From Nostoc punctiforme PCC 73102 (GTDB taxonomy: Bacteria; Cyanobacteriota; Cyanobacteriia; Cyanobacteriales; Nostocaceae): a stretch of 32,000 nucleotides of DNA. Made by a program: the position numbers and the translations under genes. This document shows, piece by piece, positions 1 through 26,583 of this stretch (positions within the stretch are counted from its first letter, which is position 1; every line of letters begins with the position of its first letter). The notes under the pieces are model-generated. The model searched no databases and was not told the origin of the DNA. It was given only the letters and a program-made list of their open reading frames with translations. Location: the NCBI RefSeq assembly GCF_000020025.1, contig NC_010628.1:6270001-6302000 (forward strand), written 5' to 3'.

Positions 1-834
1 AATAATTACAATTTTAGAATTATTCGATTGAGCTAGCTTTTCTGTGGCTTCAATCGCTCGTAATTGTAGCACTTGGTTGCTAAGTCCACCGGAGATAATT
101 TTTTGAGAATCAGCTATGCCTTGAGCTTCAATACGCTTTCGTTCTGCCTCTTGACGCTCTTTCTCTAAAACAAATTTCATTTGCTGGTTTTCTTGCTCTG
201 TCTTGAGTTTGTTTTGAATTGCCACTTGGAGAATATCAGGCATTTTGACGTTTCGTAAAAGAGCTTCCTCAACAATGAAACCCAAAGCCGGTATTTCTTC
301 GGTGAGTTGTTGGTCAATTTTTTGGGCGATTTCTTGACGTTTGGTAGAGTAAATAGCACTGGCTGGGTAGTTTGCGGTGATAGCGCGAACAGTAGAGCGG
401 AATCTGGAAATTACCAGTTGTGTTTCATCAGTTCCAATGGTTTTATATACTGTAGCTGCTTTCTGGGGATCGAGCTTGTACTGAAGACTGACATCAAGAT
501 TTAGACTCAAACCTTCTTGGGTTGTCACATCTATGTTTTCCTTCACATCCTTAATGCGAGTGGAAAAATTCAGCACTTTGTTAAAGGGGCTCAACAAGTG
601 GACACCAGGATTAAGAGTGCTTTCGGAAACCTCACCAAATAAGTTGACGACACCAATATTGCCTGGTGGGACAATCACCAAAAGCCTAGAAATAGAATTC
701 AGTATTGCAATACTGCTAATCAATATCGTAATTGTGCGTATTGCTAAACGTGACTTTTCGCCAGAGATCCTACCTGTATTGAGATAAACGAGGATTCCAA
801 TCAGGCTAGTTAGAAGAGAGATTATAAAGCCCAT
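1..834 (-). CDS. SPFH/band-7 (prohibitin/HflC-like) membrane protein; the 3' end runs off the window start
   Basis: Missing from the ORF track because there is no stop inside the window. The reverse complement from ATG at 834-832 is open for 278 codons: MGFIISLLTSLIGILVYLNTG...VIVPPGNIGVVNLFGEV...GLSLNLDVSLQYKLDPQKAATVYKTIG...EKERQEAERKRIEAQGIADSQKII. An N-terminal TM helix, an SPFH core and a charged coiled-coil tail are typical of the family. Confidence 0.8.
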   Translation of the reverse strand, partial: MGFIISLLTSLIGILVYLNTGRISGEKSRLAIRTITILISSIAILNSISRLLVIVPPGNIGVVNLFGEVSESTLNPGVHLLSPFNKVLNFSTRIKDVKENIDVTTQEGLSLNLDVSLQYKLDPQKAATVYKTIGTDETQLVISRFRSTVRAITANYPASAIYSTKRQEIAQKIDQQLTEEIPALGFIVEEALLRNVKMPDILQVAIQNKLKTEQENQQMKFVLEKERQEAERKRIEAQGIADSQKIISGGLSNQVLQLRAIEATEKLAQSNNSKIVII

Positions 835-1058
835 GAGTTTTTCTGTGTGGTTAAGATGGATAGACTTAATCACATAATTCCCAGATGCTTTTATAAAACT
901 TTCCCTCAAGGGCAGCAAGCTATAATTTTGCTTTGCCCTGTTTATTGTGGGCGGAACTCTTTTGTCATTGAGAAGGTTGATACCCCTTTTAACTCATTAC
1001 TCTTCATGGCAGCCAAGATTGTTAGGATAAACAGTAAGAATATTGTTTTGCCAAGCTT

Positions 1059-1319
1059 ATGCCTTCACCGTTTCCAGGGATGAACCCTTACCTAGAAAAT
1101 CCCGAATTCTGGGCTGAAGTTCACAGTCGGTTGATAATTGCGATCGCAGATGTAATTGCTCCTCAACTACGACCCAAATATCGAGTAGCGGTTGAAAAAC
1201 GAGTATATCAGATGACAGATGAAAATTCTATTCTAGTTGGTATTCCTGATGTGGTTGTTGCACGTTCTTTAACAAACACAGAAAAGAACCGTCTAAGGCA
1301 GCACTTCCGGCTGCTATGA
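1059..1319 (+). pseudogene. DUF4058-family protein; only about the first 77 N-terminal residues are retained
   Basis: MPSPFPGMNPYLENPEFWAEVHSRLIIAIADVIAPQLRPKYRVAVEKRVY matches the conserved DUF4058 N-terminus. As I recall, family members are about 250 aa. Here the frame ends after 86 codons, and an opposite-strand transposase remnant begins at that point. Confidence 0.6.
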
Positions 1320-1532
1320 GGTACAGTAACAGCAATTAGCAAACCAGTTTCTTAAATGTTGAGGATTTATTAAATCAAGCGCAATTGAAATTATTTGATC
1401 TACCCTTTTTGTGGTAGTCGGTGAAAACATTCGTAAGATCATCCTGCAGATAAGAGTAAAGTCTTTGATTGTGCGATTAACTTCCCTCCCAATGGAAAAG
1501 CAATAAGATTGGAAAACATACAAGCATTCCAA
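1314..1532 (-). mobile_element. IS630-family transposase C-terminal remnant (degenerate, no catalytic domain)
   Basis: The ORF ends ...DQIISIALDLINPQHLRNWFANCCYCTS. The NWFxHC(C/G)Y tail is what I recall for cyanobacterial IS630-family transposases. The upstream region has stops and frame changes, and no DDE region is present. Confidence 0.45.
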
Positions 1533-1605
1533 GAACGGTGGAGTACAGAAGGATTAGCGTTTCAACAGCACCTTCAAAGCGTATTAAATATTCATTAATA
1601 AAAAT

Positions 1606-1627
1606 CCCCGCATATTTAAATGCAGGG
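1606..1627 (-). terminator. Rho-independent terminator downstream of the EF-G-like gene
   Basis: On the minus strand, CCCTGCAT-TTAAAT-ATGCGGGG forms an 8-bp stem with one G-U pair. It is followed by ATTTTTATT and lies 25 nt after the stop at 1652. Confidence 0.5.
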
Positions 1628-1651
1628 CTTTGATTTCAGATAAATCCAAAA

Positions 1652-3700
1652 TTACTTGCCATTGCCGTTACTACCATTGCCATTGCTGTGAATGACACGT
1701 TCAGCGAGTTTTTCCGGCACTTCCTGGAGATGGTCATATTCCCAATGGAAGGAACCAACGCCCAAGGTGAGCGATCGCAGCTCTACAATAAAGTTTTGCA
1801 TCTCTGCTTGTGGCAAGTATGCAGAGACATTATCCCAGCCTTGCCAATCGTTTCTGCCCTCATAGCCTAAAATTTGCCCTCGTCTACCACTCAACAGTTG
1901 CAGCACTTTCGAGGTAAATTCGCTCGGTGTAGTCACTTCCACGCGCAGAATTGGTTCTAACAGGGTAGGTTCTGCTTGGGGTATCCCCGTTTGCATTGCC
2001 AATCGGGCAGCTTGCTTAAAGGCTTGTTCGGAACTGTCAACGTTGTGATAGGAACCATTAGTCAGAGTTACCGCTAAATCCACTAATGGGAAGCCCAAAG
2101 GCCCATGTGTCAGAAATTCCCGCACGCCCATTTCCACCCCAGGAATGTACTGTTTGGGAACCACGCCACCAACAATAGTTTCATTAAAGTTGAAACCTGT
2201 GCCGCGTGGTAGGGGTTTGATGTCGAGAAAAACGTCACCAAACTGTCCGTGACCACCGCTTTGGTGCTTGTAGCGTCCATGAACTGAAGCCACCGTTTTG
2301 CGGATGGTTTCTTTGTAAGGCACTTGCGGTAAGTGGGTTGTCATTGGCAAGTTATATTTGCGGCGCAGTCTGTCTAGGGCGACTTGTAAATGAATCTCGC
2401 CTTGACCCCACAAGATAACTTCGTGAGTATCGCCGTGTTGTTCCCAAGCAAGTGAACAGTCTTCCTCCAATAACTTGGTGATGGCACCGCTGAGTTTAAC
2501 TTCATCGTTGCGCTTTTCTGGTGTAATGGCGAGAGCATACACTGGTTCCAACTCTACAGCTTTGGGTAATTTTATTGCCGACTGCTGTTCTGTGGAGATT
2601 GTATCGCCTGTCTTGATTCCTTCTAAACGGCTCAATGCAACAATTTCACCAGCACTAACTTGGTTAACTGACTGCTGTTGCTGTCCCATGAGGCGGTAAA
2701 TTCCACCAGTGCGAATGCCATTGAGGACAATACCATCAGTTAATTTACCTCGCCAAACACGCACGAGAGAGAGTTTGCCACCTTGGGGAGTGTAGTAAGT
2801 TTTTAATACCTGTGCTAAAGGCGTATCACCTTTTAAGTTTTTTAAGCGACGTTCTGCTGTAGTTTCTGGTTCGGGTGCTTCCCGTAACAAGGCTTCTAAT
2901 AGAGGTCTAACACCATAATCTTGTTCTGCCACACCAAAGAAAACGGGGACTACTAAATCTGCCCCTAATTCCATTTTTAAATCTTTAAGGATTTCCTCTT
3001 GGGGTGGTTCGATGTCTTCTAAAAGTTCTTCGAGTAAATGGTCGTCAAAATTTGCTAGAGCTTCGAGCATTTCTGCTCGTGCTATATGTTCTTCTTCTTT
3101 TAAGCTTTCAGGGAAGGGAATGGGGTCAGCCGGTGCGCCTGGATGATATTGATATGCCTGTTCGCTCACCATATCAATAAAGCCGGTGAGTTGTTCCCCG
3201 TTCATGATGGGATATTGATGCGCTACCAGGGGACGGCTAGATACTGCTTTCAGGGCGTGTAACGTTTCTAGAACGTGAATATTTGCCCGATCCATTTTGT
3301 TGACGAAGACGAGATGGGGAATTTCCCAATCGTCGAGGAATTTAAATAGAGGGGCGAGGGTGAGGACGCGATCGCGGATGGGTTCGCAAACTACAATTGC
3401 CGCATCAACTCCCATTAAAGCATTGTACGTTTCTTGAGCAAATTCTACACTTCCCGGACAGTCAATAAAAGTAAAGCGAATGCCGTTATACTCAGTGCTA
3501 GCGGCGCTGACTTCTACACTCATGTGGCGATCGCGCGACTCGGCAGCACTATCTCCCACTGTATTGCTGTCCTTAACACTCCCTTTGCGAGAAATTGCCC
3601 CTGTGACAAATAACAAGCTTTCTAGTAAAGTGGTTTTTCCACTTAAATAAGGCCCGACAATTGCAACATTCCGCGAACCCGATTTTACTTTTTCGTTCAT
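1652..3700 (-). CDS. Elongation factor G-like translational GTPase (EF-G paralog)
   Basis: 682 aa. G1 motif VGPYLSGKTTLLE, DCPG switch II and NKMD G4 are present, followed by EF-G domains II-V. GGAGG lies 5 nt upstream of the ATG. The C-terminal tail SNGNGSNGNGK is unusual. Confidence 0.9.
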   Translation of the reverse strand: MNEKVKSGSRNVAIVGPYLSGKTTLLESLLFVTGAISRKGSVKDSNTVGDSAAESRDRHMSVEVSAASTEYNGIRFTFIDCPGSVEFAQETYNALMGVDAAIVVCEPIRDRVLTLAPLFKFLDDWEIPHLVFVNKMDRANIHVLETLHALKAVSSRPLVAHQYPIMNGEQLTGFIDMVSEQAYQYHPGAPADPIPFPESLKEEEHIARAEMLEALANFDDHLLEELLEDIEPPQEEILKDLKMELGADLVVPVFFGVAEQDYGVRPLLEALLREAPEPETTAERRLKNLKGDTPLAQVLKTYYTPQGGKLSLVRVWRGKLTDGIVLNGIRTGGIYRLMGQQQQSVNQVSAGEIVALSRLEGIKTGDTISTEQQSAIKLPKAVELEPVYALAITPEKRNDEVKLSGAITKLLEEDCSLAWEQHGDTHEVILWGQGEIHLQVALDRLRRKYNLPMTTHLPQVPYKETIRKTVASVHGRYKHQSGGHGQFGDVFLDIKPLPRGTGFNFNETIVGGVVPKQYIPGVEMGVREFLTHGPLGFPLVDLAVTLTNGSYHNVDSSEQAFKQAARLAMQTGIPQAEPTLLEPILRVEVTTPSEFTSKVLQLLSGRRGQILGYEGRNDWQGWDNVSAYLPQAEMQNFIVELRSLTLGVGSFHWEYDHLQEVPEKLAERVIHSNGNGSNGNGK

Positions 3701-3759
3701 AAAATCCTCCTTGCGGTAAGTCTTTTATAACCGCATGATTCCGTATATATCAAGGGTTG

Positions 3760-3970
3760 AAGAAGAATCCAGCTATTCTGAATGAGCTAAACGCCCCGCT
3801 AGCGCTAACAGGATTCGGAATCAAGACATTAGCGAGTCCGCGAGCGTCTTAAACCGATTTATTCATCCACCAGCGATGCACTGAGTTTCGGCTACGCTCA
3901 ACTACCGCAGGTCGTTGTGTCGTACAGAATTCATTCTGAATTCTGGCTCCTGACTCCTGAATTCTATTTG
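3760..3970. repeat. Cluster of small dispersed repeats in the EF-G-like/TPR divergent intergenic region
   Basis: acagaattcattct (3924-3937) recurs at 9941-9954. cctgaattct (3956-3965) recurs at 9994-10003. cgagcgtct (3841-3849) recurs in other repeat blocks. Confidence 0.5.
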
Positions 3971-4159
3971 ATCAAAAAATGGTTCTCTGGAGTCAAAATT
4001 ACCCCTTCTTTAATTTGTTATTATCCTTCTTTTAATCGAAAGTTAAAAAAATTGTAGCCTGTCGTAAGATTTAGCTTAATAAAAGTTAATTTTAGTAAAG
4101 ATTAATAGCGAATCTAAAATTTTTGTAAATAACTTTTTATGAAGTAAATTTAACTGAAA

Positions 4160-5104
4160 GTGTTGCGAATCAGAAAATCAATGAGATTATCATTTTCTAA
4201 ATATCCCATAGCAGGGTTAGTCAGTTTGACTTTGTTGGTTGTTAGTATTCCCTCCCCTTCTCTTTCTCTCTCTGAGTATGTCCCTTCAGAGCTGGCAAAA
4301 TCTAATGGGAAAACAGCCATAGACTGGCTAAACCAAGGTTTACAGGCAATTCAGGCGGGCAAAGTAAAAGATGCGATCGCAGCCTTTAAACAAGCAGCCA
4401 AGTTAGATCCAACATTAGCACCAGCGTACTATAATTTAGGGCTAGCGTACCGACAAACAGGACAATTACAACCCTCTGCGGACGCATTTTATCGAGCGAC
4501 GCAAGCCGATCCTAAGTTTGCTCCAGCTTTTGCTAATTTAGGTGGTGCGCTATTAGAAGGCAATAATTTACAGTTAGCTAATGATTATTTGCAACGAGCG
4601 TTAGAACTCGATCCAAAATTGGGATTTGCCCACTATAATTTTGGGTTAGTAAGAGAGCAGCAAGGAGATTGTGAGAAAGCGATCGCATCTTTTAAACAAG
4701 CCATAGAATATAGCAAAAATGCACCAGAACCTCCTTACCATATAGGGATGTGTTATCTCCAACAAGGGAAACTCGATCGAGCAAGAGATGCCTTTAATCA
4801 AGCAGTAAAAATTAATCCGAAATATCCAGAAGCTTACTACAATCTTGGTTCGATTTGGTTTCAGCAAAACAAGTTACAAGAAGCATTAGAGGCTTTTAGA
4901 AAATCAGCCGAAGCTAACTCTAACTATCCCAACGCTTATTATGGTGCAGGGTTAGTTTTTATGCAGTTAAAGCAATATGGAGATGCAGTACAAGTATTCA
5001 AATTTGCTAGAGATTTATATAATGCTCAGAAGAATCCTCAGTGGGCGAAAAATGCCGAGCAATTGTTGCAACAAGCACAAAATTTAAATTACCAACCTCG
5101 CTGA
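4160..5104 (+). CDS. Secreted tetratricopeptide-repeat (TPR) protein
   Basis: The protein has a hydrophobic signal-like N-terminus followed by about six TPR units (AxAYYNLGLAY..G....A...Y..A...DP). The true start is more likely the ATG at 4181 (MRLSFSKYPIAG...) than the GTG at 4160. Confidence 0.85.
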   Translation: MLRIRKSMRLSFSKYPIAGLVSLTLLVVSIPSPSLSLSEYVPSELAKSNGKTAIDWLNQGLQAIQAGKVKDAIAAFKQAAKLDPTLAPAYYNLGLAYRQTGQLQPSADAFYRATQADPKFAPAFANLGGALLEGNNLQLANDYLQRALELDPKLGFAHYNFGLVREQQGDCEKAIASFKQAIEYSKNAPEPPYHIGMCYLQQGKLDRARDAFNQAVKINPKYPEAYYNLGSIWFQQNKLQEALEAFRKSAEANSNYPNAYYGAGLVFMQLKQYGDAVQVFKFARDLYNAQKNPQWAKNAEQLLQQAQNLNYQPR

Positions 5105-6897: not shown

Positions 6898-7550
6898 TCA
6901 GCCAGACTGATTCTGGGCTACTTGCTGTACTTGCGCCACCGTTAAATCGAGAGCCACCGCCACTTGTTCCACACTCAACCCCAATGCCAATAACCGGGGA
7001 ATAGCTTCTAACTTAGCTTCCTGTTTACCTTCCTGTCTGCCTTCCTGTCTACCTTCCTCCAAGCCATCTTGCTTGATAGATTGATACATCCTTGTTTTTT
7101 TGAATTCGTCGTCTATACCCAACATTTCTGCTAACTCCTCTCGGCTTAACCGGGTAAATTTGTACAACAGGATAGTCTCTATCAATTCTACAATTTGCTT
7201 CCTGGTTGCTTCATCCGCTAGTTGTTGCCTTGCTTGTAAAATCAATTCTCTACTTTTGTCAACGGCTGTCTCTTCTCTTTCGATGATTAATTTAACGATC
7301 GCAACTTGAAGTGAGTTCTCCGCCGTATCTAATTCATCTAGATAAATACGTTGCACTCAACAAAGTAGAGTGGTTGATTTGTGGTTTCAGTTGTGGGCAT
7401 GAATACCCCATCAATCCTAAAAGCCGTTTCTTTTAGTTCGACTGAAACAAATTGATATGCGTTGACGTTGACAGTATTATCGCCAATTATTGCAAAAAAT
7501 ATGCTAGGAAAAGATTGAAATAAACTATAAAATATTTTGTCAGTTTGCAC
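6898..7550 (-). pseudogene. Rpn-family (DUF2887/DUF4351-type) putative nuclease, with an internal deletion and frameshift
   Basis: The N-terminal ORF (7550-7338) reads MQTDKIFYSLFQSFPSIFF...FRIDGVFMP...PLYFVE and then CNVFI-stop. The C-terminal ORF (7356-6898) starts VQRIYLDEL... and ends with the DUF4351-like tail GRQEGRQEGKQEAKLEAIPRLLALGLSVEQVA. The two frames overlap by 19 nt. The roughly 60 residues that family members carry between YFVEVQ and R[IV]YLDEL are missing. Confidence 0.7.
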
Positions 7551-17353: not shown

Positions 17354-17947
17354 TTATAACTTTAACCATCCAAATAATTGCCCTACAGTTAATTGAAAGC
17401 CGTTAACTAAATCTGGAACTGGTAATATTTCTTGTTCTTCTTGTAAAAGTTCTGGTTGCTGCTTTGGTGGATAAACTAAAACAGAATGCTCATCTGGATC
17501 AATTAGCCAACCGAAGCGACTACCATGTTTTAAACAATGTAGAATATTTCCAGTTACTTTAGTCTGGCTTTGATCGGGTGAAAGAATCTCAATCGTCCAG
17601 TCTGGAGATGTCTTAAAGACATTTGCCACTTCTCCACGCTCGTCTAATAAAATCCGTTCCCAAGCAAACACAGCTATATCAGGGACAATTGAACGTCCGC
17701 CATAGACGCTCGAAGAGCGGCTTCCCGCAGGGTAAGTACATCGCAATTCTGGAAATGCAAGGGCAATTTTTTGAGGTTTGGTTACAGAATTGATATTACT
17801 GACTAGTTCACCCTGGAGAATACTATGTTTCCCCTGTGGCATTGGCTTTTGAATAATTTGACCGTTGATGTATTCTGAGCTAGGCTTTGTTTCTGGAAGC
17901 TTTAAAAATTCTTCTAAAATAAAGCTTTTAGTTAGTGATTTTATCAT
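17354..17947 (-). CDS. Uma2-family (DUF820) putative endonuclease
   Basis: LEEFLKLPETKPSSEYINGQIIQKPMPQGKHS...PDIAVFAWERI...PDWTIEILSPDQSQTKVTGNILHCLKHG matches the cyanobacterial Uma2 consensus as I recall it. GGAGA lies 10 nt upstream of the ATG. Confidence 0.85.
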   Translation of the reverse strand: MIKSLTKSFILEEFLKLPETKPSSEYINGQIIQKPMPQGKHSILQGELVSNINSVTKPQKIALAFPELRCTYPAGSRSSSVYGGRSIVPDIAVFAWERILLDERGEVANVFKTSPDWTIEILSPDQSQTKVTGNILHCLKHGSRFGWLIDPDEHSVLVYPPKQQPELLQEEQEILPVPDLVNGFQLTVGQLFGWLKL

Positions 17948-17980: not shown

Positions 17981-18712
17981 TTACCCTAAATAAGCTTTTT
18001 TAACTCGCTCATCACTAATTAATTCTGATGCTACGCCTGTTAATGTGATAGAACCCGCTTCCAAAACATAACCGCGATCGGCAATTTGTAATGCCAAATT
18101 CGCGTTTTGTTCAACTAACAAAATAGTCACGCCTGTAGCACGGAGATTTTCAATAATCGAGAAGATTTCCCGGACGATCGCAGGTGCTAAACCTAAGCTA
18201 GGCTCGTCTAAAAGTAAGAGTTGTGGTTTACTCATGACAGCGCGAGCGATCGCTAACATTTGTTGTTCGCCACCACTGAGAGTTCCTGCTAGTTGATTGC
18301 GTCTTTGTGACAAACGTGGAAATAGCTCAAACTGACGCTGAATATCTGCTTTTATCTCTGCTTGATTGGAGCGAATATAAGCACCTAAAAGTAAATTGTC
18401 AAATACTGTTTGCCGCGCTAATACTCTACGTCCTTCAGGACAATGGGCAATACCAAGTTGTACAACTTCGTGAGTTTGGCGGCGAGTAATATTATGTCCA
18501 TTATATAAAATTACGCCACTCTTAGAATTAACTACTTTAGATATGGCACGGAGTGTAGTAGTTTTACCAGCACCATTAGCACCAATTAGAGTAACTACCT
18601 CGCCTTTTTGAATAATTAAATTAATCTTTTTCAGAGCTTGAATACCGCCATAATTAACATCAAGTTCTTGAACTTCTAAAATTGTGTAGTTTGGTCTACT
18701 ATCGGCTTTCAT
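17981..18712 (-). CDS. LivF-type ABC ATPase (HAAT family)
   Basis: Walker A GANGAGKTT, signature LSGGEQQML, Walker B LLLLDEPS and the LivF-type C-terminus DERVKKAYLG. Confidence 0.9.
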   Translation of the reverse strand: MKADSRPNYTILEVQELDVNYGGIQALKKINLIIQKGEVVTLIGANGAGKTTTLRAISKVVNSKSGVILYNGHNITRRQTHEVVQLGIAHCPEGRRVLARQTVFDNLLLGAYIRSNQAEIKADIQRQFELFPRLSQRRNQLAGTLSGGEQQMLAIARAVMSKPQLLLLDEPSLGLAPAIVREIFSIIENLRATGVTILLVEQNANLALQIADRGYVLEAGSITLTGVASELISDERVKKAYLG

Positions 18713-18889: not shown

Positions 18890-19729
18890 GTGGCAAAAGC
18901 AGCAGATATTGGTAGCAAGCGACTAATTAATTTAGCTCCCGATGCATGGGTACAGTGGGTGACACAGCGTCCTGAAGTTGTGGCGAAAGAAATTCTCGGT
19001 TCTGAATTTCACTGGATTAGCCGAGAGACAGATGTTTTAGTGAAGGCATATAGTGCCACTCACGGGGATTTTCTGGTATTAAATGAACTACAACTGCGTT
19101 ATACAGCACAGATGCCTCTACGCATGAGAGCCTATGCTGCCCTAGCACAAGAACGCTACCGATTGCCAACTTACCCAGTACTGATCAATATTTTACCGCC
19201 TCCATCTACTTTAACTATTGTCAATAGTTACGAACAGGAATTTTTGGGATTACGTGCCATCCAAGATTATCGCGTGATTAATTTGTGGGAAATCGATGCT
19301 GAAATAGTGTTTGAGCAACCACTACCATCGTTACTACCCTTTGTGCCAATCCTGCGAGGAGGAGGAGAGGTATCAGTTGTGCAACGCGCATTACAGGCGC
19401 TACGAGCAGATGCACAGTTGAACGAATTAGAATCATTGTTGGCATTTTTTGCTAGCTTTGTTTTGGAAATGCCTTTAGTGCAACAAATGATGAGGTGGGA
19501 TATGGCAATATTGCGAGAATCGCCTTGGTATCACGAGATTGAGCAAAGAGGTATTCAAGAGGGTGCGCGACGGCAGTTAATCCGAGTATTGGAACAACGC
19601 TTTGGCGAAATTCCCCATGAGGTAGAAGTAAGGCTTGAGGGCAAAAATGTAGAACAATTAGAAATTTTAATGGATAGTGCGATCGCAGTGAATTCTTTAG
19701 ACGAATTTCTCACAATTATATCTGCGTGA
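18890..19729 (+). CDS. Rpn-family recombination-promoting nuclease/putative transposase with a DUF4351-like C-terminus
   Basis: 279 aa from a GTG start. DIGSKRLINLAPDAWVQWVT...EFHWISRETDVLVKA...FLVLNELQLRY...MRAYAALAQERYRLPTYPVLINILPP, then MRWDMAILRESPWYHEIEQRG and a C-terminal helical domain. Confidence 0.8.
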   Translation: MAKAADIGSKRLINLAPDAWVQWVTQRPEVVAKEILGSEFHWISRETDVLVKAYSATHGDFLVLNELQLRYTAQMPLRMRAYAALAQERYRLPTYPVLINILPPPSTLTIVNSYEQEFLGLRAIQDYRVINLWEIDAEIVFEQPLPSLLPFVPILRGGGEVSVVQRALQALRADAQLNELESLLAFFASFVLEMPLVQQMMRWDMAILRESPWYHEIEQRGIQEGARRQLIRVLEQRFGEIPHEVEVRLEGKNVEQLEILMDSAIAVNSLDEFLTIISA

Positions 19730-19841
19730 CACACTCTACACACTCCTATCGACGGTGAGTGTGGGCTTCTGTGCGACTCCTCTACGAGGAAAATACAGTA
19801 GCGCTGAAAACCACGTTTAAGAGTGCGTAAGCCCTTTGCGG

Positions 19842-20025
19842 CTACCCGAATTCAATCAACGACTGCCCGAATTCAATCAACGACTGCCCGAATTCAATCA
19901 ACGGCTGCCCGAATTCAATCAACGGCTGCCCAAATTAAATCAACGACTGCCCAACTTCAATCAACGATTGCCCGAATTCAATCAACAACTGCCCGAATTC
20001 AATCAACGACTGCCCAACTTCAATA
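19842..20025 (+). repeat. Tandem array of a 21-bp unit (ctgcccgaattcaatcaacga), 8 full copies plus 1 partial
   Basis: Unit boundaries are at 19842, 19863, 19884, 19905, 19926, 19947, 19968, 19989 and 20010. Each unit carries 0-3 substitutions. Five units carry an EcoRI site. Confidence 0.95.
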
Positions 20026-20078
20026 TAAAAACTTAGCAAATTTGCTTTTATTAAACACGAAAGCGATGGCTTTGCTAA

Positions 20079-20435
20079 CGCCAAGGGCGAACGCAACAAC
20101 TGGAAACAGTTCTAGCTTTTTTTGCTACGTTTGTTTTAGAGAATACGCTCGTTCAAGAAATCATGAGGTGGGATATGTCTGTATTACGTGAGCCACCTTG
20201 GTATCAGGAAATTTTGCGCGAAGGGGAAGTACGTGGAGAAGAACGCGGGAAAGCAAGCGGAGAACTACGAGGAATACTTTCTGCGATTGAAATTAATTTA
20301 GAGTTGAAATTTAGCGATCGCGGCTTACAATTAATGCCACAGATTAATCAGATTCAGGATTTGGAGCGTTTGAAGACAATTTTACGAAATGTTGTTACTG
20401 CAAATACTGTTGAGGAATTGCAACAGATTTTGTAA
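20079..20435 (+). pseudogene. 5'-truncated paralog of the Rpn/DUF4351 gene (C-terminal ~118 codons only)
   Basis: In frame with the 20163 ORF, upstream to the stop at 20076, it reads ..QQLETVLAFFATFVLENTLVQEIMRWDMSVLREPPWYQEILREG. This aligns with LNELESLLAFFASFVLEMPLVQQMMRWDMAILRESPWYHEIEQRG of the intact gene. No nuclease domain lies upstream, only the tandem array. Confidence 0.7.
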
Positions 20436-20450: not shown

Positions 20451-21221
20451 TCATTCATTACCCAAATAAGCTTCAATTACAGCTGGGTCGTTTCTAACGA
20501 TAGATGGTTCACCCAAAGCAATCAACTGTCCAAAATCTAACACGGCAATGCGATCGCACAAACCCATAACCAAGGGTACATGGTGTTCAATCAGGACAAT
20601 TGTCAAATTAAACTGTTCTCGCAGACTGCGGATAAATTCACTCAGTTGCTGCTTTTCGTTGGGGTTCATCCCCGCCGCAGGTTCGTCGAGGAGTAAGATT
20701 TGCGGTTCTAAGGCTAAAGCGCGGGCAATTTCCAGGCGACGCTGATCGCCGTAGGCGAAGTTTTTGGCTTTTTCGTCAGCGCGATCGCTCAATCCCACCA
20801 TCTCTAATAATTGTAAAGCTTTTCGCCTGCTTTTTTTCTCTTCCCGACGGGCTGGTGGTAATCCCAAAACTCCTGTTAATAGATTACTTTTATTATCTAA
20901 ATGTCGAGCAATTATTACATTTTCTAGCGCTGACAATTCACCAAATAAACGAATATTTTGAAAAGTTCTAGCAATACCTAAACCTGCAATTTGATGGGGG
21001 CGTAGTTGGGAAATATTAGTACCTTGATAGCGCAACTCTCCACTAGAAAGGGGAATAAAAGCTGTAATCAAATTAAACAGTGTTGTTTTCCCAGCGCCGT
21101 TAGGGCCAATTAATCCAAAAATCTCATGTTGATTGACTGTAAAAGATACATTATTCACCGCCACTAAACCCCCAAAACGGCGAGTTAGTGATTTGGCTTC
21201 TAAAACAATGTTATTTGTCAT
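20451..21221 (-). CDS. LivG-type ABC ATPase (HAAT family)
   Basis: Walker A GPNGAGKTT, a signature-like YGDQRRLEIARAL, Walker B ILLLDEPAAG and the LivG-type insertion. Its start codon overlaps the GMC gene stop by 1 nt (TAATG). Confidence 0.9.
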   Translation of the reverse strand: MTNNIVLEAKSLTRRFGGLVAVNNVSFTVNQHEIFGLIGPNGAGKTTLFNLITAFIPLSSGELRYQGTNISQLRPHQIAGLGIARTFQNIRLFGELSALENVIIARHLDNKSNLLTGVLGLPPARREEKKSRRKALQLLEMVGLSDRADEKAKNFAYGDQRRLEIARALALEPQILLLDEPAAGMNPNEKQQLSEFIRSLREQFNLTIVLIEHHVPLVMGLCDRIAVLDFGQLIALGEPSIVRNDPAVIEAYLGNE

Positions 21222-22744
21222 TATGCTGCGGCTTTAATCAAATCGGCTGCTTTTTCACCAATCATAATTGTGGGTGCATTTGTGTTTCCCGTGGTAATAG
21301 TTGGCATAATTGATGCATCAACTACACGTAATCCAGCAACACCATGAACTCGTAGTTCGGGGTTTACTACTGAATCAGCGTCAGTTCCCATTTTACAAGT
21401 GCCGACTGGGTGGTATACACTGTCGCAGGTTTCCCGGATGTAAGCTAGGAGTGTTTCATCACTCTTATTATCAGCACCGGGGGCTGCTTCCTCTCCTCGC
21501 AACTCATCAAATACACTTGAGTGGAATATCTGCCGAATAATTTTGACCCCTGCCAGCAGCTTTTGCAAATCAGATTCACTTTGGAGATAATTCATCCGAA
21601 TTATAGCTGGGTCTTTGGAAAAAGCAGAACTCAGACTGACACTACCACGACTTTCGGGATTAGTCACACAAACTGTAGCCGTGAATCCTGGCGCAGAACG
21701 TGCATAAGCAGGATGTGTCCACAAAACAGGGCCAGAGAAAAACTGTAAATCGGGCACAGCATCTAAACGACCTTCAGTATGTAGGAACAATCCAACTTCT
21801 GCAATATTGCTGGTTAAATCGGGTTGCAAATCCTGGGTTGCTTCGTGTGCTACGCCGACTAAAATATGATCTTGGAGGTTCTGACCGACACCAGGTAAAT
21901 CAACGACTACAGGAATGTCGAAATTCTGTAGATGTTCTGCATTGCCAATCCCAGAGAGCATCAACAGCTTGGGCGAATCGATCGCACCAGCACTTAGAAT
22001 CACTTCCTGTTCTACCCGAACTTGGTGTATCGTTCCTTGATGGATATATTCTACGCCTACAGTTTGCGTTCCCTCAAACAATAATCTAGTAACTAACGCG
22101 CCAGTGGTGACGGTTAAGTTGGGACGCTCCAAAATCGGTAGTAGAAACGCAGTCGCCGTACTATGGCGCTTACCATCTTTAATTGTCAACTGATAAAATC
22201 CGGCTCCGTGCTGTTGTGTGCCATTAAAATCAGGATTGCGCTCATAGCCAAGTCCAATAGCGGCTTCCAGAAATTTTTGTGAGATGACGCTGGGAGCTAA
22301 GGGATCTGTCACACTCAACAATCCATCAACTCCATGAAATTCAGATGCTCCTCGTTGCTGATTTTCAGATTTCTGGAAATAGGGCAACACATCTTCATAA
22401 CTCCAACCAACATTGCCTAATTTCTCCCAATGGTCATAATCAAGCCGACTGCCTCGAATATAGATCATGGCATTGATCGCACTAGTGCCACCTAAGACTT
22501 TCCCGCGCGGACAATAAATTTTCCGGTTATTGATATATGGTTCTTCTTCTGTAAAATATGCCCAGTCCGCCTCTGTACCCCAAAGTTTTGTCCAGGCTAA
22601 AGGAATTTCGTGTTCTGGTAAGTTAGGCGGATTGCCTGCCTCTAGCAACAATACAGTCGTTTCGGCATCTTCTGTCAACCGATTTGCGACGACACAACCA
22701 GCCGAACCTGCACCAATTACAATATAATCATATTTATCCTTCAT
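21221..22744 (-). CDS. GMC-family FAD oxidoreductase (choline dehydrogenase-like)
   Basis: The N-terminus is YDYIVIGAGSAGCVVANRLTE (GxGxxG), with LLLEAG, GKVLGGTSAINAMIY and C-terminal HPVGTCKMG / VVDASIMP motifs. I place the start at 22744 (MKDKYDY...). The track's 22750 start lies inside a 19-bp duplication. Confidence 0.9.
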   Translation of the reverse strand: MKDKYDYIVIGAGSAGCVVANRLTEDAETTVLLLEAGNPPNLPEHEIPLAWTKLWGTEADWAYFTEEEPYINNRKIYCPRGKVLGGTSAINAMIYIRGSRLDYDHWEKLGNVGWSYEDVLPYFQKSENQQRGASEFHGVDGLLSVTDPLAPSVISQKFLEAAIGLGYERNPDFNGTQQHGAGFYQLTIKDGKRHSTATAFLLPILERPNLTVTTGALVTRLLFEGTQTVGVEYIHQGTIHQVRVEQEVILSAGAIDSPKLLMLSGIGNAEHLQNFDIPVVVDLPGVGQNLQDHILVGVAHEATQDLQPDLTSNIAEVGLFLHTEGRLDAVPDLQFFSGPVLWTHPAYARSAPGFTATVCVTNPESRGSVSLSSAFSKDPAIIRMNYLQSESDLQKLLAGVKIIRQIFHSSVFDELRGEEAAPGADNKSDETLLAYIRETCDSVYHPVGTCKMGTDADSVVNPELRVHGVAGLRVVDASIMPTITTGNTNAPTIMIGEKAADLIKAAA

Positions 22745-22763
22745 AATCATATTTATCCTTCAT
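22726..22763. repeat. Perfect 19-bp tandem duplication spanning the GMC start codon
   Basis: aatcatatttatccttcat occurs at 22726-22744 and again at 22745-22763. On the coding strand, ATGAAGGATAAATATGATT is present twice. Confidence 0.95.
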
Positions 22764-22794
22764 AATATTATCTATCTTCTATTTATTAAATTGT

Positions 22795-23748
22795 CTATTT
22801 TGATGTTTTGAAAATTAGCTTTATCAACTGCTTTTTACACTTTTTCAAAATATCTGGAGTTACAAATCCTTGGGGAAAAAATATAGTTCCTAAGACTATT
22901 AATATACCATAAATAATTAATCTACCATCTCGCAAAAATTGGGCTAACCAATTGGGTAATCCTGCTATATCGGCGATTCTTCGTAAAATAATTTCTAGTA
23001 AAACTTTTAATACAATCGCACCGACCACCGAACCTAAAAAAGTTCTAGAACCACCAATTAACACAATCGTCAAATAAGTGATGCCAGCATCAAAAGTACC
23101 TTGTCGAGCATTCCAGGTATTGAGAAAATGAGCGCTGATGACACCTACAATTGCGGCAAGCACTGCTCCGAGAGTAAAGGCTAAAACTTTGTAGTAGGTG
23201 GGGTTTATTCCCATTGCACTGGCAGCTAATTCATCTTCACGGATAGCAATGAAGGCCCTACCTGTGCGAATGCGTTCTAAACGGTAAAATAATACCATAC
23301 TAACTAACAGTAATGGTACAGCAATCCACAAATATTCGATTTGGCTTTGGAAAGGTTGAGGAATACCAAAAATTCCTACAGCACCGCCTGTAATATCTAA
23401 ATTTAAGGATACAACTCGCAATACTTCTACAAAAGCAATAGTTGCGATCGCTAAATAAATTCCCCGTAACCTTAATGCCGGAATTCCTACTATTACAGCT
23501 AATATACCGGAGATTAAACCAGCAATCAACATTTCTAATAAAAGTAATGGAATGGGAAATAAATTATTACTAGATGGAAAAAGTTTTGTAGATAAAATCG
23601 CTGCAATATATCCACCTAAAGCATAAAATCCAGGACTAGCCAAAGATAATTGTCCAGCCATTAGGGGTAAATAAAGCGATAATCCTAATAAAGCCTCCAA
23701 TACCATGTAGACTATTGGTGATTCATAAGTAGAGAAAAATTCAGCCAT
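22795..23748 (-). CDS. LivM-type ABC permease (HAAT family)
   Basis: 317 aa and multi-TM. GQLSLASPGFYALGGYIAAIL and the FIAIREDELAASAMGINP loop are typical of LivM. Confidence 0.85.
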   Translation of the reverse strand: MAEFFSTYESPIVYMVLEALLGLSLYLPLMAGQLSLASPGFYALGGYIAAILSTKLFPSSNNLFPIPLLLLEMLIAGLISGILAVIVGIPALRLRGIYLAIATIAFVEVLRVVSLNLDITGGAVGIFGIPQPFQSQIEYLWIAVPLLLVSMVLFYRLERIRTGRAFIAIREDELAASAMGINPTYYKVLAFTLGAVLAAIVGVISAHFLNTWNARQGTFDAGITYLTIVLIGGSRTFLGSVVGAIVLKVLLEIILRRIADIAGLPNWLAQFLRDGRLIIYGILIVLGTIFFPQGFVTPDILKKCKKQLIKLIFKTSK

Positions 23749-23763
23749 TGTAAAATATTTTGA

Positions 23764-24366
23764 TTAAGCTGTTAATATTTGCTCTGCTGTTAACGCCAGT
23801 TCAGGAAAGGTTCGTGACACAATTCGTTCGGAACCTTTAAAATATGTGCGTTGATATTTACCCTCGGCATCTAATAGAAAAACAAACACAGTCGGAACTT
23901 TGGGATTTCCCAAATACTCTCTAGAACCAATTGCTAAATAATCTACAATCCAATATTCTGTAATACCTAACCGTTGATATTCATCCAATTTATCAATGTA
24001 GTCATCTTCCCAATTAGCTGATGTTACCTCGACAGCTAGCTGGATGGGTTCTTCAAGTGCAGAATAAGCAGAACGATTTGAGCGCCAGACATCTTTATCT
24101 ATGACACTTACATCAGGCTTACGTCCTTGTTCGATTCCATTGGCAGTTATGGTTTTTAAAACTGCTGTGTTTTTTACTACGTAATTCAGATTTAGACGTT
24201 TAATTTCATCATTGAAACTCAACAATATAAAATCAGCGACATCATCATGATTTCTCGTTGCACGCACTTCTACAATTTCTCCATCCACAAGTTCATATAA
24301 ACCTTCTTCTGGACACTCTTCCAAAAAATCATCAAAAGTTAATTTTTGTTTGGTGTATGTTTTCAT
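23764..24366 (-). CDS. Uma2-family (DUF820) putative endonuclease, divergent from the 17354-17947 copy
   Basis: LTFDDFLEECPEEGLYELVDGEIVEV...KPDVSVIDKDVW...IQLAVEVTSANWEDDYIDKLDEYQRLGITEYWIVD shows the D...E-V-x-S restriction-endonuclease-like core and the YxxxG(I/V)xEYW(I/L)VD tail of Uma2 proteins. Confidence 0.8.
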   Translation of the reverse strand: MKTYTKQKLTFDDFLEECPEEGLYELVDGEIVEVRATRNHDDVADFILLSFNDEIKRLNLNYVVKNTAVLKTITANGIEQGRKPDVSVIDKDVWRSNRSAYSALEEPIQLAVEVTSANWEDDYIDKLDEYQRLGITEYWIVDYLAIGSREYLGNPKVPTVFVFLLDAEGKYQRTYFKGSERIVSRTFPELALTAEQILTA

Positions 24367-24380
24367 TGTGCTGCGTCTCT

Positions 24381-25331
24381 TTAAACTTTTTGAATAAACC
24401 GACGACCTAGCAAGCCTTGGGGTCTAACTAACAACATGATAAATAATATTCCGTAGGCTACAGCTTCTTTGTAACCGGAATATTCTGTCGGTACAAAAGC
24501 TTCAACTAATCCAATAAGTAACCCTCCTAAAACTGCGCCGGGAATACTACCTAAACCGCCTAAGACAATTACCGCTAAACCCCGCAACCCAAAAGCGATG
24601 CCAAAATATGGACCAGCAATACTAACACTAGAGGCGACTAAGGTTCCTGCTAATCCTGCTAAGAAGCTGCTGATGAAGAATGTGAGAATGATAAAGCGAT
24701 CGCTATTAATGCCTAACAAACTAGCTGTAGTCGGATCTTCTGCGATCGCCTGCATTGCTTTACCATACTTAGTCCGATTGATAAAATAGGTAATAATTGC
24801 CACAATCGCAACTGATACAGCAAAAATTATGATCTGAACGGTGCGAATAGGAATTTCCTTTTCTGGAGTACCAAAATTAATCGAAGGTGGTAAATTCCCA
24901 TAAGTATCAGCGGGGTATGTGTAACTTTCTGCGCCTACCAAATACTGGATTAAGTTCACAATTACTACTGCTACCCCCAAGCTGGAAACAACAGTTAGTA
25001 AGGGATCAGATCCTTGACGGCGCAAAGGTTGAAAAGCAACCCGTTCCATTACTACCCCAATCAATCCCGCCAAGGTACTTCCTAAAATTAAGGCTATAGC
25101 AAATGGCAATTTTATTGGCAAGGCTGCATTCGCTAGCAAGCCGTTAAATCCAAAGTTACCACCCATAAGGGCATAAGTGAAATATGCACCCAAGGTAAAA
25201 ATCGCGCCATGAGCTAAATTAATGATGCCCAAAATTGAATAAACTAAGGTATATCCCAATGCAAAAATTGCATAGATACTACCAATAGATAATCCGTTCA
25301 AAAATTGTTGCAGAAATAGAGTTATATCCAT
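24381..25331 (-). CDS. LivH-type ABC permease (HAAT family)
   Basis: FLQQFLNGLSIGSIYAIFALGYTLVYSILGIINLAHGAIFTLGAY is a classic LivH N-terminus. 316 aa and multi-TM. Confidence 0.9.
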   Translation of the reverse strand: MDITLFLQQFLNGLSIGSIYAIFALGYTLVYSILGIINLAHGAIFTLGAYFTYALMGGNFGFNGLLANAALPIKLPFAIALILGSTLAGLIGVVMERVAFQPLRRQGSDPLLTVVSSLGVAVVIVNLIQYLVGAESYTYPADTYGNLPPSINFGTPEKEIPIRTVQIIIFAVSVAIVAIITYFINRTKYGKAMQAIAEDPTTASLLGINSDRFIILTFFISSFLAGLAGTLVASSVSIAGPYFGIAFGLRGLAVIVLGGLGSIPGAVLGGLLIGLVEAFVPTEYSGYKEAVAYGILFIMLLVRPQGLLGRRFIQKV

Positions 25332-25338
25332 GTTGCAA

Positions 25339-26583
25339 CTATTTTATAAATACAAATTTTCCAGTATTCCCATCTTTATCCATCTTGATTTGGGCGACAT
25401 AAAATTCTTTCTGGATCACATCGCCTACTGGTGTAAAAGCAATCTCACCTAAAGGAGTATTATACTTTCCAGCTAGTATTTGCTTGTTCAATTCTGTCCG
25501 CAGTTTATCAAGAGGTAATGTGCTGATTTTGGTTTTTTTATCCAACTCTTTCAGCGCTTCAACATACACCTGCACCGCCGCAAAAGATTGACCGGTAAAT
25601 TGGGCTGGTTCTTTCTTATATTGATCAATATAGGTTTGGCGAAATACCTTATTAATCTCACCAGGATATTCAGGACTGTAAGCTTGAGCAATCAGCACAC
25701 CATCGCAAAGGGCTTTACATACTGATAAAACATTGGGTGTATTCAGACCATTACCACCAATAATTATGCCTTTATAACCCAGTTCTCGCAGTTGCCGAAC
25801 TAAGTTACCACCATCAGCAGCTAGTCCCGAAATAATTACTAAATCTGGTTTTAAGTTAATTGCATTGGTAGCTTGGGCTTGAAAGTCTGTATCAGTAGTT
25901 TGGAACTTTTGAACTGTTACTAATTCTAGCCCTTGTTCTTTGACTGCTTTTTGAAAAATCTCTGTTTCTGATTTGTTAAATGCGTCATTTTGGGCGTAAA
26001 AAACTGCAACTTTTTTAATTTGAGGATTCTGTTTTAGTGCAGCTTTCACTGAATTAGGGGCAACTATAGAGACGGGAGAAGATACACGAGCTACATAATC
26101 ACCGATTTCGGGAATTCCGTTTGCGGTATTTGATGCTCCAATAACTGGAACTTTTGCACGTTCGGCAATGGGGTCAGCACTAAACGCTTGTTGTGACAAA
26201 GTAGGGCCAACAATACCGACAACTTTATCCTTGTTAATTAAAGTTTGAAAAGCGTTAATTGCTCCAGCTTCATCACCGCTAGTATCTTGGGGTACCAATT
26301 TAATCGGAGTGCCATTAATACCACCTTTACTATTGAAATACTTCTCAGCAATTCTGGCTCCCACAAATCCCTCTTGACCGAGTAATGCTACATTACTAGT
26401 TTGTGCTAAGGCAATACCGATGGGAATCGCACCCGATGTAGTCGTTGTCTGGGCGGTGTTAGTTGTAGTGTTATTTGGAGTACTATTTGGAGGATTTGTC
26501 ACAGAGCCACCGCCACCACAGCCTGTTAGTAGCAAAGCGCAAGTTGATAATAATGCTGTTGTCTGAGCGATCGCGTTGTTCAT
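25339..26583 (-). CDS. LivJ/K-type periplasmic substrate-binding lipoprotein (type I PBP)
   Basis: Lipobox LLLTGC, a Thr/Asn/Pro-rich linker, then IPIGIALAQTSNVALLGQE...GGINGTPIKLVPQDTSGD...VVGIVGPTLS, typical of branched-chain amino acid/amide binding proteins. Confidence 0.9.
   Translation of the reverse strand: MNNAIAQTTALLSTCALLLTGCGGGGSVTNPPNSTPNNTTTNTAQTTTTSGAIPIGIALAQTSNVALLGQEGFVGARIAEKYFNSKGGINGTPIKLVPQDTSGDEAGAINAFQTLINKDKVVGIVGPTLSQQAFSADPIAERAKVPVIGASNTANGIPEIGDYVARVSSPVSIVAPNSVKAALKQNPQIKKVAVFYAQNDAFNKSETEIFQKAVKEQGLELVTVQKFQTTDTDFQAQATNAINLKPDLVIISGLAADGGNLVRQLRELGYKGIIIGGNGLNTPNVLSVCKALCDGVLIAQAYSPEYPGEINKVFRQTYIDQYKKEPAQFTGQSFAAVQVYVEALKELDKKTKISTLPLDKLRTELNKQILAGKYNTPLGEIAFTPVGDVIQKEFYVAQIKMDKDGNTGKFVFIK

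Follow-up and report, generated by a model that had tools for sequence, protein, structure and literature searches.

Why a gene of a functionally blank protein family should lie between the two permease genes of a transporter operon is the question raised by a HAAT/Liv-type ATP-binding cassette (ABC) locus in a stretch of 32,000 nucleotides (nt) from the cyanobacterium Nostoc punctiforme PCC 73102 (the window, whose positions serve as coordinates below). The gene, here termed Uma2a, belongs to the Uma2/COG4636 family (DUF820), one of the largest uncharacterised protein families of cyanobacteria, which has been without an assigned function for twenty years (PMC551604). The family accounts for >2% of the genes in Gloeobacter, and N. 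punctiforme is among the six genomes richest in it (PMC551604). On the minus strand the gene order is a Peripla_BP_6 gene, livH, Uma2a, livM, a GMC oxidoreductase gene and livG, followed, beyond a block of opposite orientation, by livF and a second Uma2 gene (Uma2b). An initial examination of the letters alone (the sequence-only reading) had placed the livH stop at 24381, an open reading frame (ORF) of 200 amino acids (aa) at 24366-23764 and the livM start at 23748, all on one strand and with spacers of 14 and 15 nt, and these positions are exact according to the ORF listing and the sequence. It took the gene for a precise insertion that was owed either to selfish spread or to a functional link with the operon. 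Comparison across related genomes favours a different answer, to which we assign a probability of roughly 0.65: Uma2a would be an old embedding that has been inherited vertically and lost repeatedly as dispensable, with an autonomous role directed at nucleic acids, and would be neither an accessory of transport nor a spreading homing endonuclease.

The livH-livM junction in related strains

With livH as bait, we fetched 80 orthologous loci, one genome per species and the best 80 of 177 relatives, from Nostoc, Desmonostoc, Komarekiella, Amazonocrinis, Calothrix and Tolypothrix at 88-100% livH identity (loci are numbered with the prefix L; the livH protein of the window is 100% identical to the N. 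punctiforme protein P0121). The gene-order survey finds the livH-livM gap occupied by an intact ortholog of Uma2a (79-96% identity) at 64 of 80 evaluable junctions, window included, and the arrangement recurs in Fortiea contorta, Nostoc UHCC 0870, the 554-kb replicon of Nostoc carneum NIES-2107 and several metagenome contigs. At 16 of the 80 junctions (~20%) the intact gene is wanting, and when these were read base by base most proved to be losses. The sister of the window strain, Nostoc sp. LEGE 12450 (L001), has an internal deletion that leaves codons 1-74 and 178-200; codons 1-97, 1-41 and 1-95 remain in L007, L044 and L067, respectively; L031 has a premature stop; and the last ~12 nt of the ORF remain in L073, the closest relatives of which (L072 and L075) are intact. 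In L053, L054 and L056 the leader of 14 nt and the downstream spacer are kept around unrelated filler, and in L050 the livH TAA is fused exactly to the post-ORF spacer (...CAGAAAGTTTAATAGTTGAT...). No remnant is seen in L025, L033 and L061, which have a common 106-nt spacer with heptamer repeats, and no clear remnant in L066, L069 and L074 (spacers of 8-26 nt; the L066 junction reads ...GTCTAATCAATATG...) or in L169 and L170, which represent a livH protein found in Mojavia pulchra and the livH protein of Calothrix NIES-2098, respectively. The leader is conserved across the orthologous loci and persists in L054, L056, L053 and L044 despite deletion or replacement of the ORF. Together, the remnants and the exact fusion in L050 indicate that the inserted unit consists of the 14-nt leader and an ORF ending in TAA, set directly after the livH TAA, in agreement with the gene-sized module with sharp edges that had been proposed from the window alone. 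Both livH and livM are full length in the loci that have lost Uma2a.

In a neighbour-joining tree of livH and livG (midpoint root), carriers of Uma2a are found on both sides of the deepest split and absences are scattered at the tips, a distribution that implies at least ten independent loss events; by this count Uma2a has been deleted, truncated or replaced ten times or more. The tree of Uma2a itself recovers the transporter clades A, B, C, F, D+E and G, and mixing is confined to close Nostoc lineages, whose flanking genes are mosaic too. Synonymous distances of Uma2a and livH are correlated with a Pearson r of 0.85, as compared with 0.68-0.90 for the transporter genes among themselves, and none of ~1800 locus pairs is discordant, i.e. 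combines a Uma2a divergence of <3% with one of >8% in both flanks, or shows the opposite. The flanks display no marked dip in diversity of the kind expected from co-conversion. As far as such comparison shows it, Uma2a has travelled with the operon since before the sampled genera diverged. Presence/absence polymorphism at this junction, for which a comparison of relatives had been proposed, thus exists, but it stems from repeated deletion and decay with remnants and not from gains. Selfish spread or recent insertion is contradicted by the occupied junctions across several Nostocaceae genera, the congruent deep clades, the correlation with livH and the lack of discordant pairs. The sequence-only reading had itself held that a gene present at the same junction with a phylogeny congruent with that of the permeases would speak against it, and within the sampled clade this is largely what is found.

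Several points weigh against so old and so strictly vertical a history. The synonymous divergence of Uma2a is lower than that of its flanks (0.76x livH, 0.61x livM), which could hint at some exchange. The L066/L069/L074 clade and L169/L170 could be ancestrally empty, in which case the insertion would be somewhat younger, and the locus tree was rooted at its midpoint. Two whole-database searches with livH proteins (window and L079) gave only matches of at least 89% identity and retrieved no outgroup operon from outside the clade, so that the ancestral empty state is not established. Finally, the long retention of two divergent Uma2 genes in one operon is an unexplained coincidence if their function is unrelated to that operon. 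Of two giant proteins that came up in the representative search (P0332 and P0334), P0332 is an insect allergen-repeat protein, and the match was set aside as spurious.

The operon as a whole is mosaic among Nostoc strains (L001-L080). The substrate-binding protein and livM occur in two allelic classes, ~95% and ~80% identical to the window, whose distribution does not follow livH or livF; L007, for example, has 96% identity in the substrate-binding protein, 97% in livH, 82% in livM, 87% in livG and 98% in livF. Such mosaic alleles indicate that homologous exchange is frequent in the operon.

The spacers on either side of Uma2a are hot spots of short insertions that resemble repeats or miniature inverted-repeat transposable elements (L067, L054/L056, L025/L033/L061, L169 and L170). 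They include, in L067, a palindromic element of ~180 nt upstream of the truncated Uma2a, arrays of the heptamer CTCATAA in the spacers of L025, L033 and L061, and a GTAGGGTGGGCATTGCCCACCCTAC hairpin in the spacer of L169. The spacer between Uma2a and livM is enlarged elsewhere by 50-400 nt of such DNA, or by a Cupin_2 gene. This gene, of 153 aa, is found in two metagenome contigs (L085:5843-6304 and L086:4126-4587), where the junction accordingly holds two foreign genes.

Expression, predicted active site and selection

A consensus scan detects no terminator-like site in the 14-nt or 15-nt spacer, and the sole promoter-like match nearby (23775-23747) has a -10 hexamer that overlaps the livM start codon. 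This candidate was rejected, as it overlaps the livM ATG, could not yield livM mRNA and lacks conservation in loci whose spacers are longer; the expectation that the spacers hold neither a terminator nor an obvious promoter is thus borne out. Without a terminator or usable promoter of its own, Uma2a is most simply read as co-transcribed with the operon, and read-through from the operon promoter is the likeliest source of its expression. Apart from Uma2a, no ORF of at least 60 aa is present on either strand of 23749-24380, and the neighbours are permeases of 316-317 aa. Uma2a therefore has no adjacent small partner gene of the kind that defines a type II toxin-antitoxin module.

Assignment of the 200-aa product to Uma2, initially made by inspection, is confirmed by a profile search, in which PF05685 is matched over positions 2-171 of 172 with E 5.2e-30 and 104.6 bits (cutoff 27). 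A match is also obtained with PDC-S03, a single-gene phage-defence candidate (PDC) in PADLOC (model PDLC04835, E 1.5e-74), with residues 1-199 aligned on profile positions 1-201 of 207. Feder & Bujnicki 2005 described COG4636 as PD-(D/E)XK nucleases in which the lysine is relocated to the following helix, and D85, E113 and the relocated K126 of Uma2a match their PD-EXX-K version of the active site (PMC551604), a correspondence set by motif position and not by structural superposition. Among the intact orthologs these predicted catalytic residues are retained in 64/64, 63/64 and 64/64 proteins, respectively. As a coarse check, a weak AlphaFold2 (AF2) model built from a shallow ortholog alignment (mean pLDDT 59.7, pTM 0.56) was submitted to Foldseek, and all seven PDB matches with E <= 1e-3 are Uma2-family structures (TM score 0.43-0.61), representing the four uncharacterised entries 6okh, 9y1l, 3ot2 and 1wdj; searching PDB sequences with a profile yielded little more than 9y1l and 6okh. 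Uma2a looks catalytically competent as a predicted nuclease.

The ratio of non-synonymous to synonymous substitution (dN/dS; Nei-Gojobori, all pairs) is 0.16 for Uma2a over 2016 pairs and 0.15 for Uma2b, as compared with 0.06-0.12 for the five transporter genes. The length is exactly 603 nt in 61 of the 64 intact ORFs, and 70 of 200 residues are invariant. These values indicate that Uma2a is kept by purifying selection, which, together with the kept predicted catalytic residues, suggests that Uma2a does something that favours its own retention. Base composition is close to that of livM (G+C content 0.36 for both genes; at third codon positions, GC3, 0.24 for Uma2a and 0.25 for livM). Synonymous diversity falls at codons 116-140 of Uma2a, probably owing to a succession of two-fold degenerate codons (D, E, Y, K, N) along with gap columns in the alignment.

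Relatives in other settings and the competing explanations

A metagenome scan with the ortholog alignment yields a graded series of Uma2a relatives. All those at or above 79-82% identity sit in the Liv operon, whereas relatives at 59-80% identity (~70 contigs) never do so and are distributed over at least 25 other, individually recurrent contexts. Where both neighbours are visible (34 contexts), both are co-oriented with the Uma2 gene in 16, of which seven are tight on both sides. The clearest parallel is the order ureA-Uma2-ureB-ureC in the metagenome contigs L146 (1-1322), L153 (~700-4447) and L158, where a Uma2 gene with 63-64% identity to Uma2a (Pfam confirmed) is flanked by the urease subunit genes ureA (gamma) and ureB (beta)/ureC, with spacers of 20 nt upstream and 51-114 nt downstream, and occurs as a tandem pair in L153. 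Around Uma2a-like genes in 28 contexts, the flanks have no motif in common and show neither inverted repeats nor target duplications. A homolog with 80-81% identity in Cyanobacteria bacterium UBA8543 (L081/L082:7001-7603) lies alone between divergently oriented genes, with DUF5691 and an unknown gene/PHO4 cluster as neighbours. It is as similar as some in-operon orthologs, and the DNA similarity between L081 and the window ends at the ORF ends; either the ORF moved alone or these loci represent the source lineage.

The course of events that we favour is that a bare module of leader and ORF became embedded between the permease genes in an ancestor of the Nostoc, Komarekiella, Calothrix and Tolypothrix lineage, and would since have been inherited vertically with the operon, expressed by read-through, held by purifying selection with its predicted catalytic Asp, Glu and relocated Lys, and lost ten or more times from loci that kept livH and livM. 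Given these losses and the unrelated settings of its closest relatives, Uma2a most likely has an autonomous role that targets nucleic acids and is most likely a defence-type or 'solo toxin'/selfish nuclease that would use a housekeeping operon for its expression. Repeated deletion with remnants and intact permeases argues both against ongoing homing and against a need in transport; Uma2a is apparently not needed by the transporter.

The alternatives closest to the sequence-only reading are homing and service to the transporter. An active homing-type endonuclease would cut empty livH-livM junctions and be copied in by repair, and the pattern would represent a cycle of invasion, fixation, decay, loss and re-invasion. 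As with free-standing homing endonuclease genes (e.g. in T4-like phages), a nuclease-fold ORF lies between conserved genes, and intact, decayed and absent states coexist. The sharp edges with a TAA on both sides, the exact empty junction in L050, the slightly lower synonymous divergence of Uma2a, its close relatives as bare ORFs at many sites without shared flanks, and the homing-like, selfish proliferation that Feder & Bujnicki 2005 proposed for COG4636 (PMC551604) all point the same way. We nonetheless regard homing as quite improbable. The clear absences are all nested among carriers, and ORF remnants are left in most, so that neither gains into empty sites nor re-invasion is seen; the phylogeny agrees with that of the host genes at deep nodes; no similar Uma2a copies with divergent flanks and no co-conversion signature accompany it; and selection at this bacterial chromosome site is sustained past near-fixation, whereas pure homing should relax it once the element is fixed. 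An accessory recruited, perhaps with Uma2b, to regulate or assist the ABC system would account for the retention of the gene, under purifying selection, at one junction in several genera, for the second Uma2 gene at the end of the operon and for the tight spacing, which implies co-expression. This too is very unlikely, since the many losses leave livH and livM full length, losses of the two Uma2 genes are uncorrelated, relatives occupy contexts unrelated to transport, urease included, and the predicted nuclease-type active site is retained; genes as unrelated as those for the GMC oxidoreductase, the Cupin_2 protein and a 170-aa ORF likewise lodge in gaps of the operon. The functional link to the operon that had been suggested is thus unsupported.

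Two further explanations concern persistence itself. As an addiction element, Uma2a would persist because loss of the locus, or of the balance of its expression, is penalised, and the operon would incidentally be protected from deletion. Makarova et al. 2009 classed Uma2/COG4636 as a likely solo toxin (PMC2701414), Kopfmann et al. raised operon stabilisation for the hox operon, which bears a DUF820 gene and a toxin-antitoxin pair (PMC4963859), and the long persistence of Uma2a is compatible with such a role. Clean and frequent loss with the operon kept is the opposite of strong addiction, and with permeases on both sides in place of an antitoxin gene we deem this explanation unlikely. That Uma2a is a functionless passenger, a decaying ORF that happens to be intact in the window strain, would agree with its loss or decay at 16 of 80 junctions and is hardly credible in view of the dN/dS, the near-constant length and the invariant residues, those of the active site included.

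The embedding itself has precedents, and the suggestion that such an intra-operon position had not been described was too strong: a DUF820 gene inside hoxEFUYH has been published (PMC4963859), and the homing-like, selfish hypothesis dates from 2005 (PMC551604). Kopfmann et al. 2016 found the DUF820 gene sll1222 inside hoxEFUYH of Synechocystis 6803/6714 and, in seven further strains, DUF820 genes close to hox genes (PMC4963859), and in Lyngbya the DUF820 ORF17 adjoins hoxW (PMC2674450); Steczkiewicz et al. 2012 reported the cyanobacterial context to be well conserved. Like Uma2a, sll1222 is wedged in a conserved multi-subunit operon in the same orientation, and it is part of a longer transcription unit, as Uma2a probably is, but the host of Uma2a is an ABC transporter and not a hydrogenase, no toxin-antitoxin pair accompanies it, and its age, selection and loss history have been measured. 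Compared with the Uma2/DUF820/COG4636 family at large (1WDJ TT1808, 3OT2 Ava_3926, 6OKH and 9Y1L), Uma2a differs in nothing essential: the full-length match to the hidden Markov model, the size of ~200 aa, the residues of PD-EXX-K type and the lack of a partner gene are common to both, and Uma2a is one orthologous lineage with a defined, long-lived site between permease genes. The PDC-S03 model is matched over its whole length, and both are embedded, co-oriented single genes. Payne et al. 2024 nominated PDCs by embedding in BREX, DISARM or type I restriction-modification (RM) systems (bioRxiv 10.1101/2024.01.29.577857); by this general description PDC-S03 would stem from such an embedding screen, and 'PDC-S03' is named neither in the supplements nor in the literature searched. 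The host of Uma2a is by contrast a transporter operon, with transporter genes and no defence system as neighbours, and its relatives lie in urease and other housekeeping contexts. The literature searched contains no activity or phenotype for any Uma2 protein.

The locus thus adds a new and well-documented case of a habit already known in a family that is itself known but functionally blank, and it provides a clean, dated example of what would be one ancient embedding with long vertical inheritance under purifying selection. It does not resolve the function of Uma2; its practical value is that of a tractable model with natural null alleles in close relatives (e.g. Nostoc sp. LEGE 12450 as compared with LEGE 12447 and PCC 73102). 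Embedding in housekeeping operons (Liv, ureA-ureB) also calls for caution, as embedding in defence systems may be unsafe evidence of a defence role for Uma2. A broader and more tentative idea, which we think possible though on balance doubtful, is that operon-gap embedding is the way of life of the family, i.e. that promoter-less ORFs colonise the gaps of steadily transcribed operons (Liv, ureA-ureB, hox, RM/BREX) and are then kept for long by selection for a nuclease function of their own. In that case, 'guilt by embedding' would be no evidence of defence for PDC-S03, and the Nostoc locus, with sister-strain deletion alleles in a genetically tractable host, would serve readily as a model both for Uma2 function and for the relocation of bare ORFs.

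Uma2b and the other genes of the operon

The features of the operon are collected in Table 1. The gene set is that of a HAAT/Liv-type operon, with a Peripla_BP_6 protein, two BPD_transp_2 permeases and two ABC ATPases, one with a BCA_ABC_TP_C tail, and all transporter components, including the substrate-binding protein, score below the NCBIfam equivalog cutoffs. An Rfam scan of the whole window gave zero matches and hence no riboswitch pointer to the substrate.

Table 1. Features of the Liv-type operon in the N. punctiforme PCC 73102 window
Feature	Position	Strand	Evidence
Substrate-binding protein of the HAAT/Liv-type ABC transporter, first gene of the operon	25339..26583	-	Pfam Peripla_BP_6, E 1.9e-54
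livH-like permease, 316 aa, stop codon 24381-24383	24381..25331	-	Pfam BPD_transp_2 PF02653, E 1.8e-43; best NCBIfam match LivH, below cutoff
14-nt leader of the Uma2 module, AGAGACGCAGCACA	24367..24380	-	ORF listing and sequence
Uma2a, 200 aa, Uma2/COG4636 protein of predicted PD-(D/E)XK fold	23764..24366	-	Pfam PF05685; ACC83418.1 / WP_012411372.1
15-nt spacer, Uma2a stop to livM start, TCAAAATATTTTACA	23749..23763	-	ORF listing and sequence
livM-like permease, 317 aa	22795..23748	-	Pfam BPD_transp_2 PF02653, E 6.1e-35; best NCBIfam match LivM, below cutoff
GMC-family oxidoreductase, between livM and livG	21221..22750	-	Pfam GMC_oxred_N and GMC_oxred_C
livG-like ATPase	20451..21221	-	Pfam ABC_tran and BCA_ABC_TP_C; best NCBIfam match LivG
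livF-like ATPase	17981..18712	-	Pfam ABC_tran; best NCBIfam match LivF
Uma2b, second, very divergent Uma2 gene, 33 nt downstream of livF	17354..17947	-	Pfam PF05685, E 2e-31; ACC83412.1

Uma2b is kept at its position in 36 of 46 evaluable loci. BLASTP detects no significant similarity between Uma2a and Uma2b, and their losses are independent (30/9/6/1, Fisher p = 1); a partnership of the two genes was ruled out on these grounds.

Unlike Uma2a, the GMC oxidoreductase gene, a further gene foreign to the operon, is, on the loci compared, truly patchy. It is full length in only 7 of the 80 fetched loci (L002, L012, L013, L015, L017, L020 and L024), or eight with the window, and N- or C-terminal remnants are present in L006 and L016. 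Its stop codon overlaps the livG start codon, and its best NCBIfam match, below cutoff, is choline dehydrogenase; the gene could hint at the substrate of the transporter in the strains that carry it. A 19-nt tandem repeat of 2.3-2.8 copies (ATAATCATATTTATCCTTC, plus strand) at 22724-22776 extends over the livM-GMC spacer and the start codon of the GMC gene, which makes the start of this ORF part of a local duplication.

Other insertions are seen in the remaining gaps. In L170 an ORF of 170 aa without a Pfam match lies between livM and livG. A block of opposite orientation (18890-20435, plus strand) parts livG from livF in Nostoc but not in loci of Tolypothrix/Calothrix type, and livF is contiguous with livG in L072, L073, L075 and L083. 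The block contains a 279-aa DUF4351 protein, an array of 8.6 copies of 21 nt (tandem repeat 19845-20024) and a 90-aa ORF, and related loci have one or two DUF4351 genes between livG and livF. DUF4351 is another family expanded in cyanobacteria. PADLOC gave no further match among the adjacent foreign ORFs examined. With GMC, Cupin_2, the 170-aa ORF and the DUF4351 block all lodged in gaps of the operon, its junctions may simply tolerate insertions. Elsewhere in the window, a 152-aa ORF at 6898-7356 (minus strand) matches only the C-terminal 80 positions of DUF2887, likewise a family expanded in cyanobacteria, and is probably a fragment.

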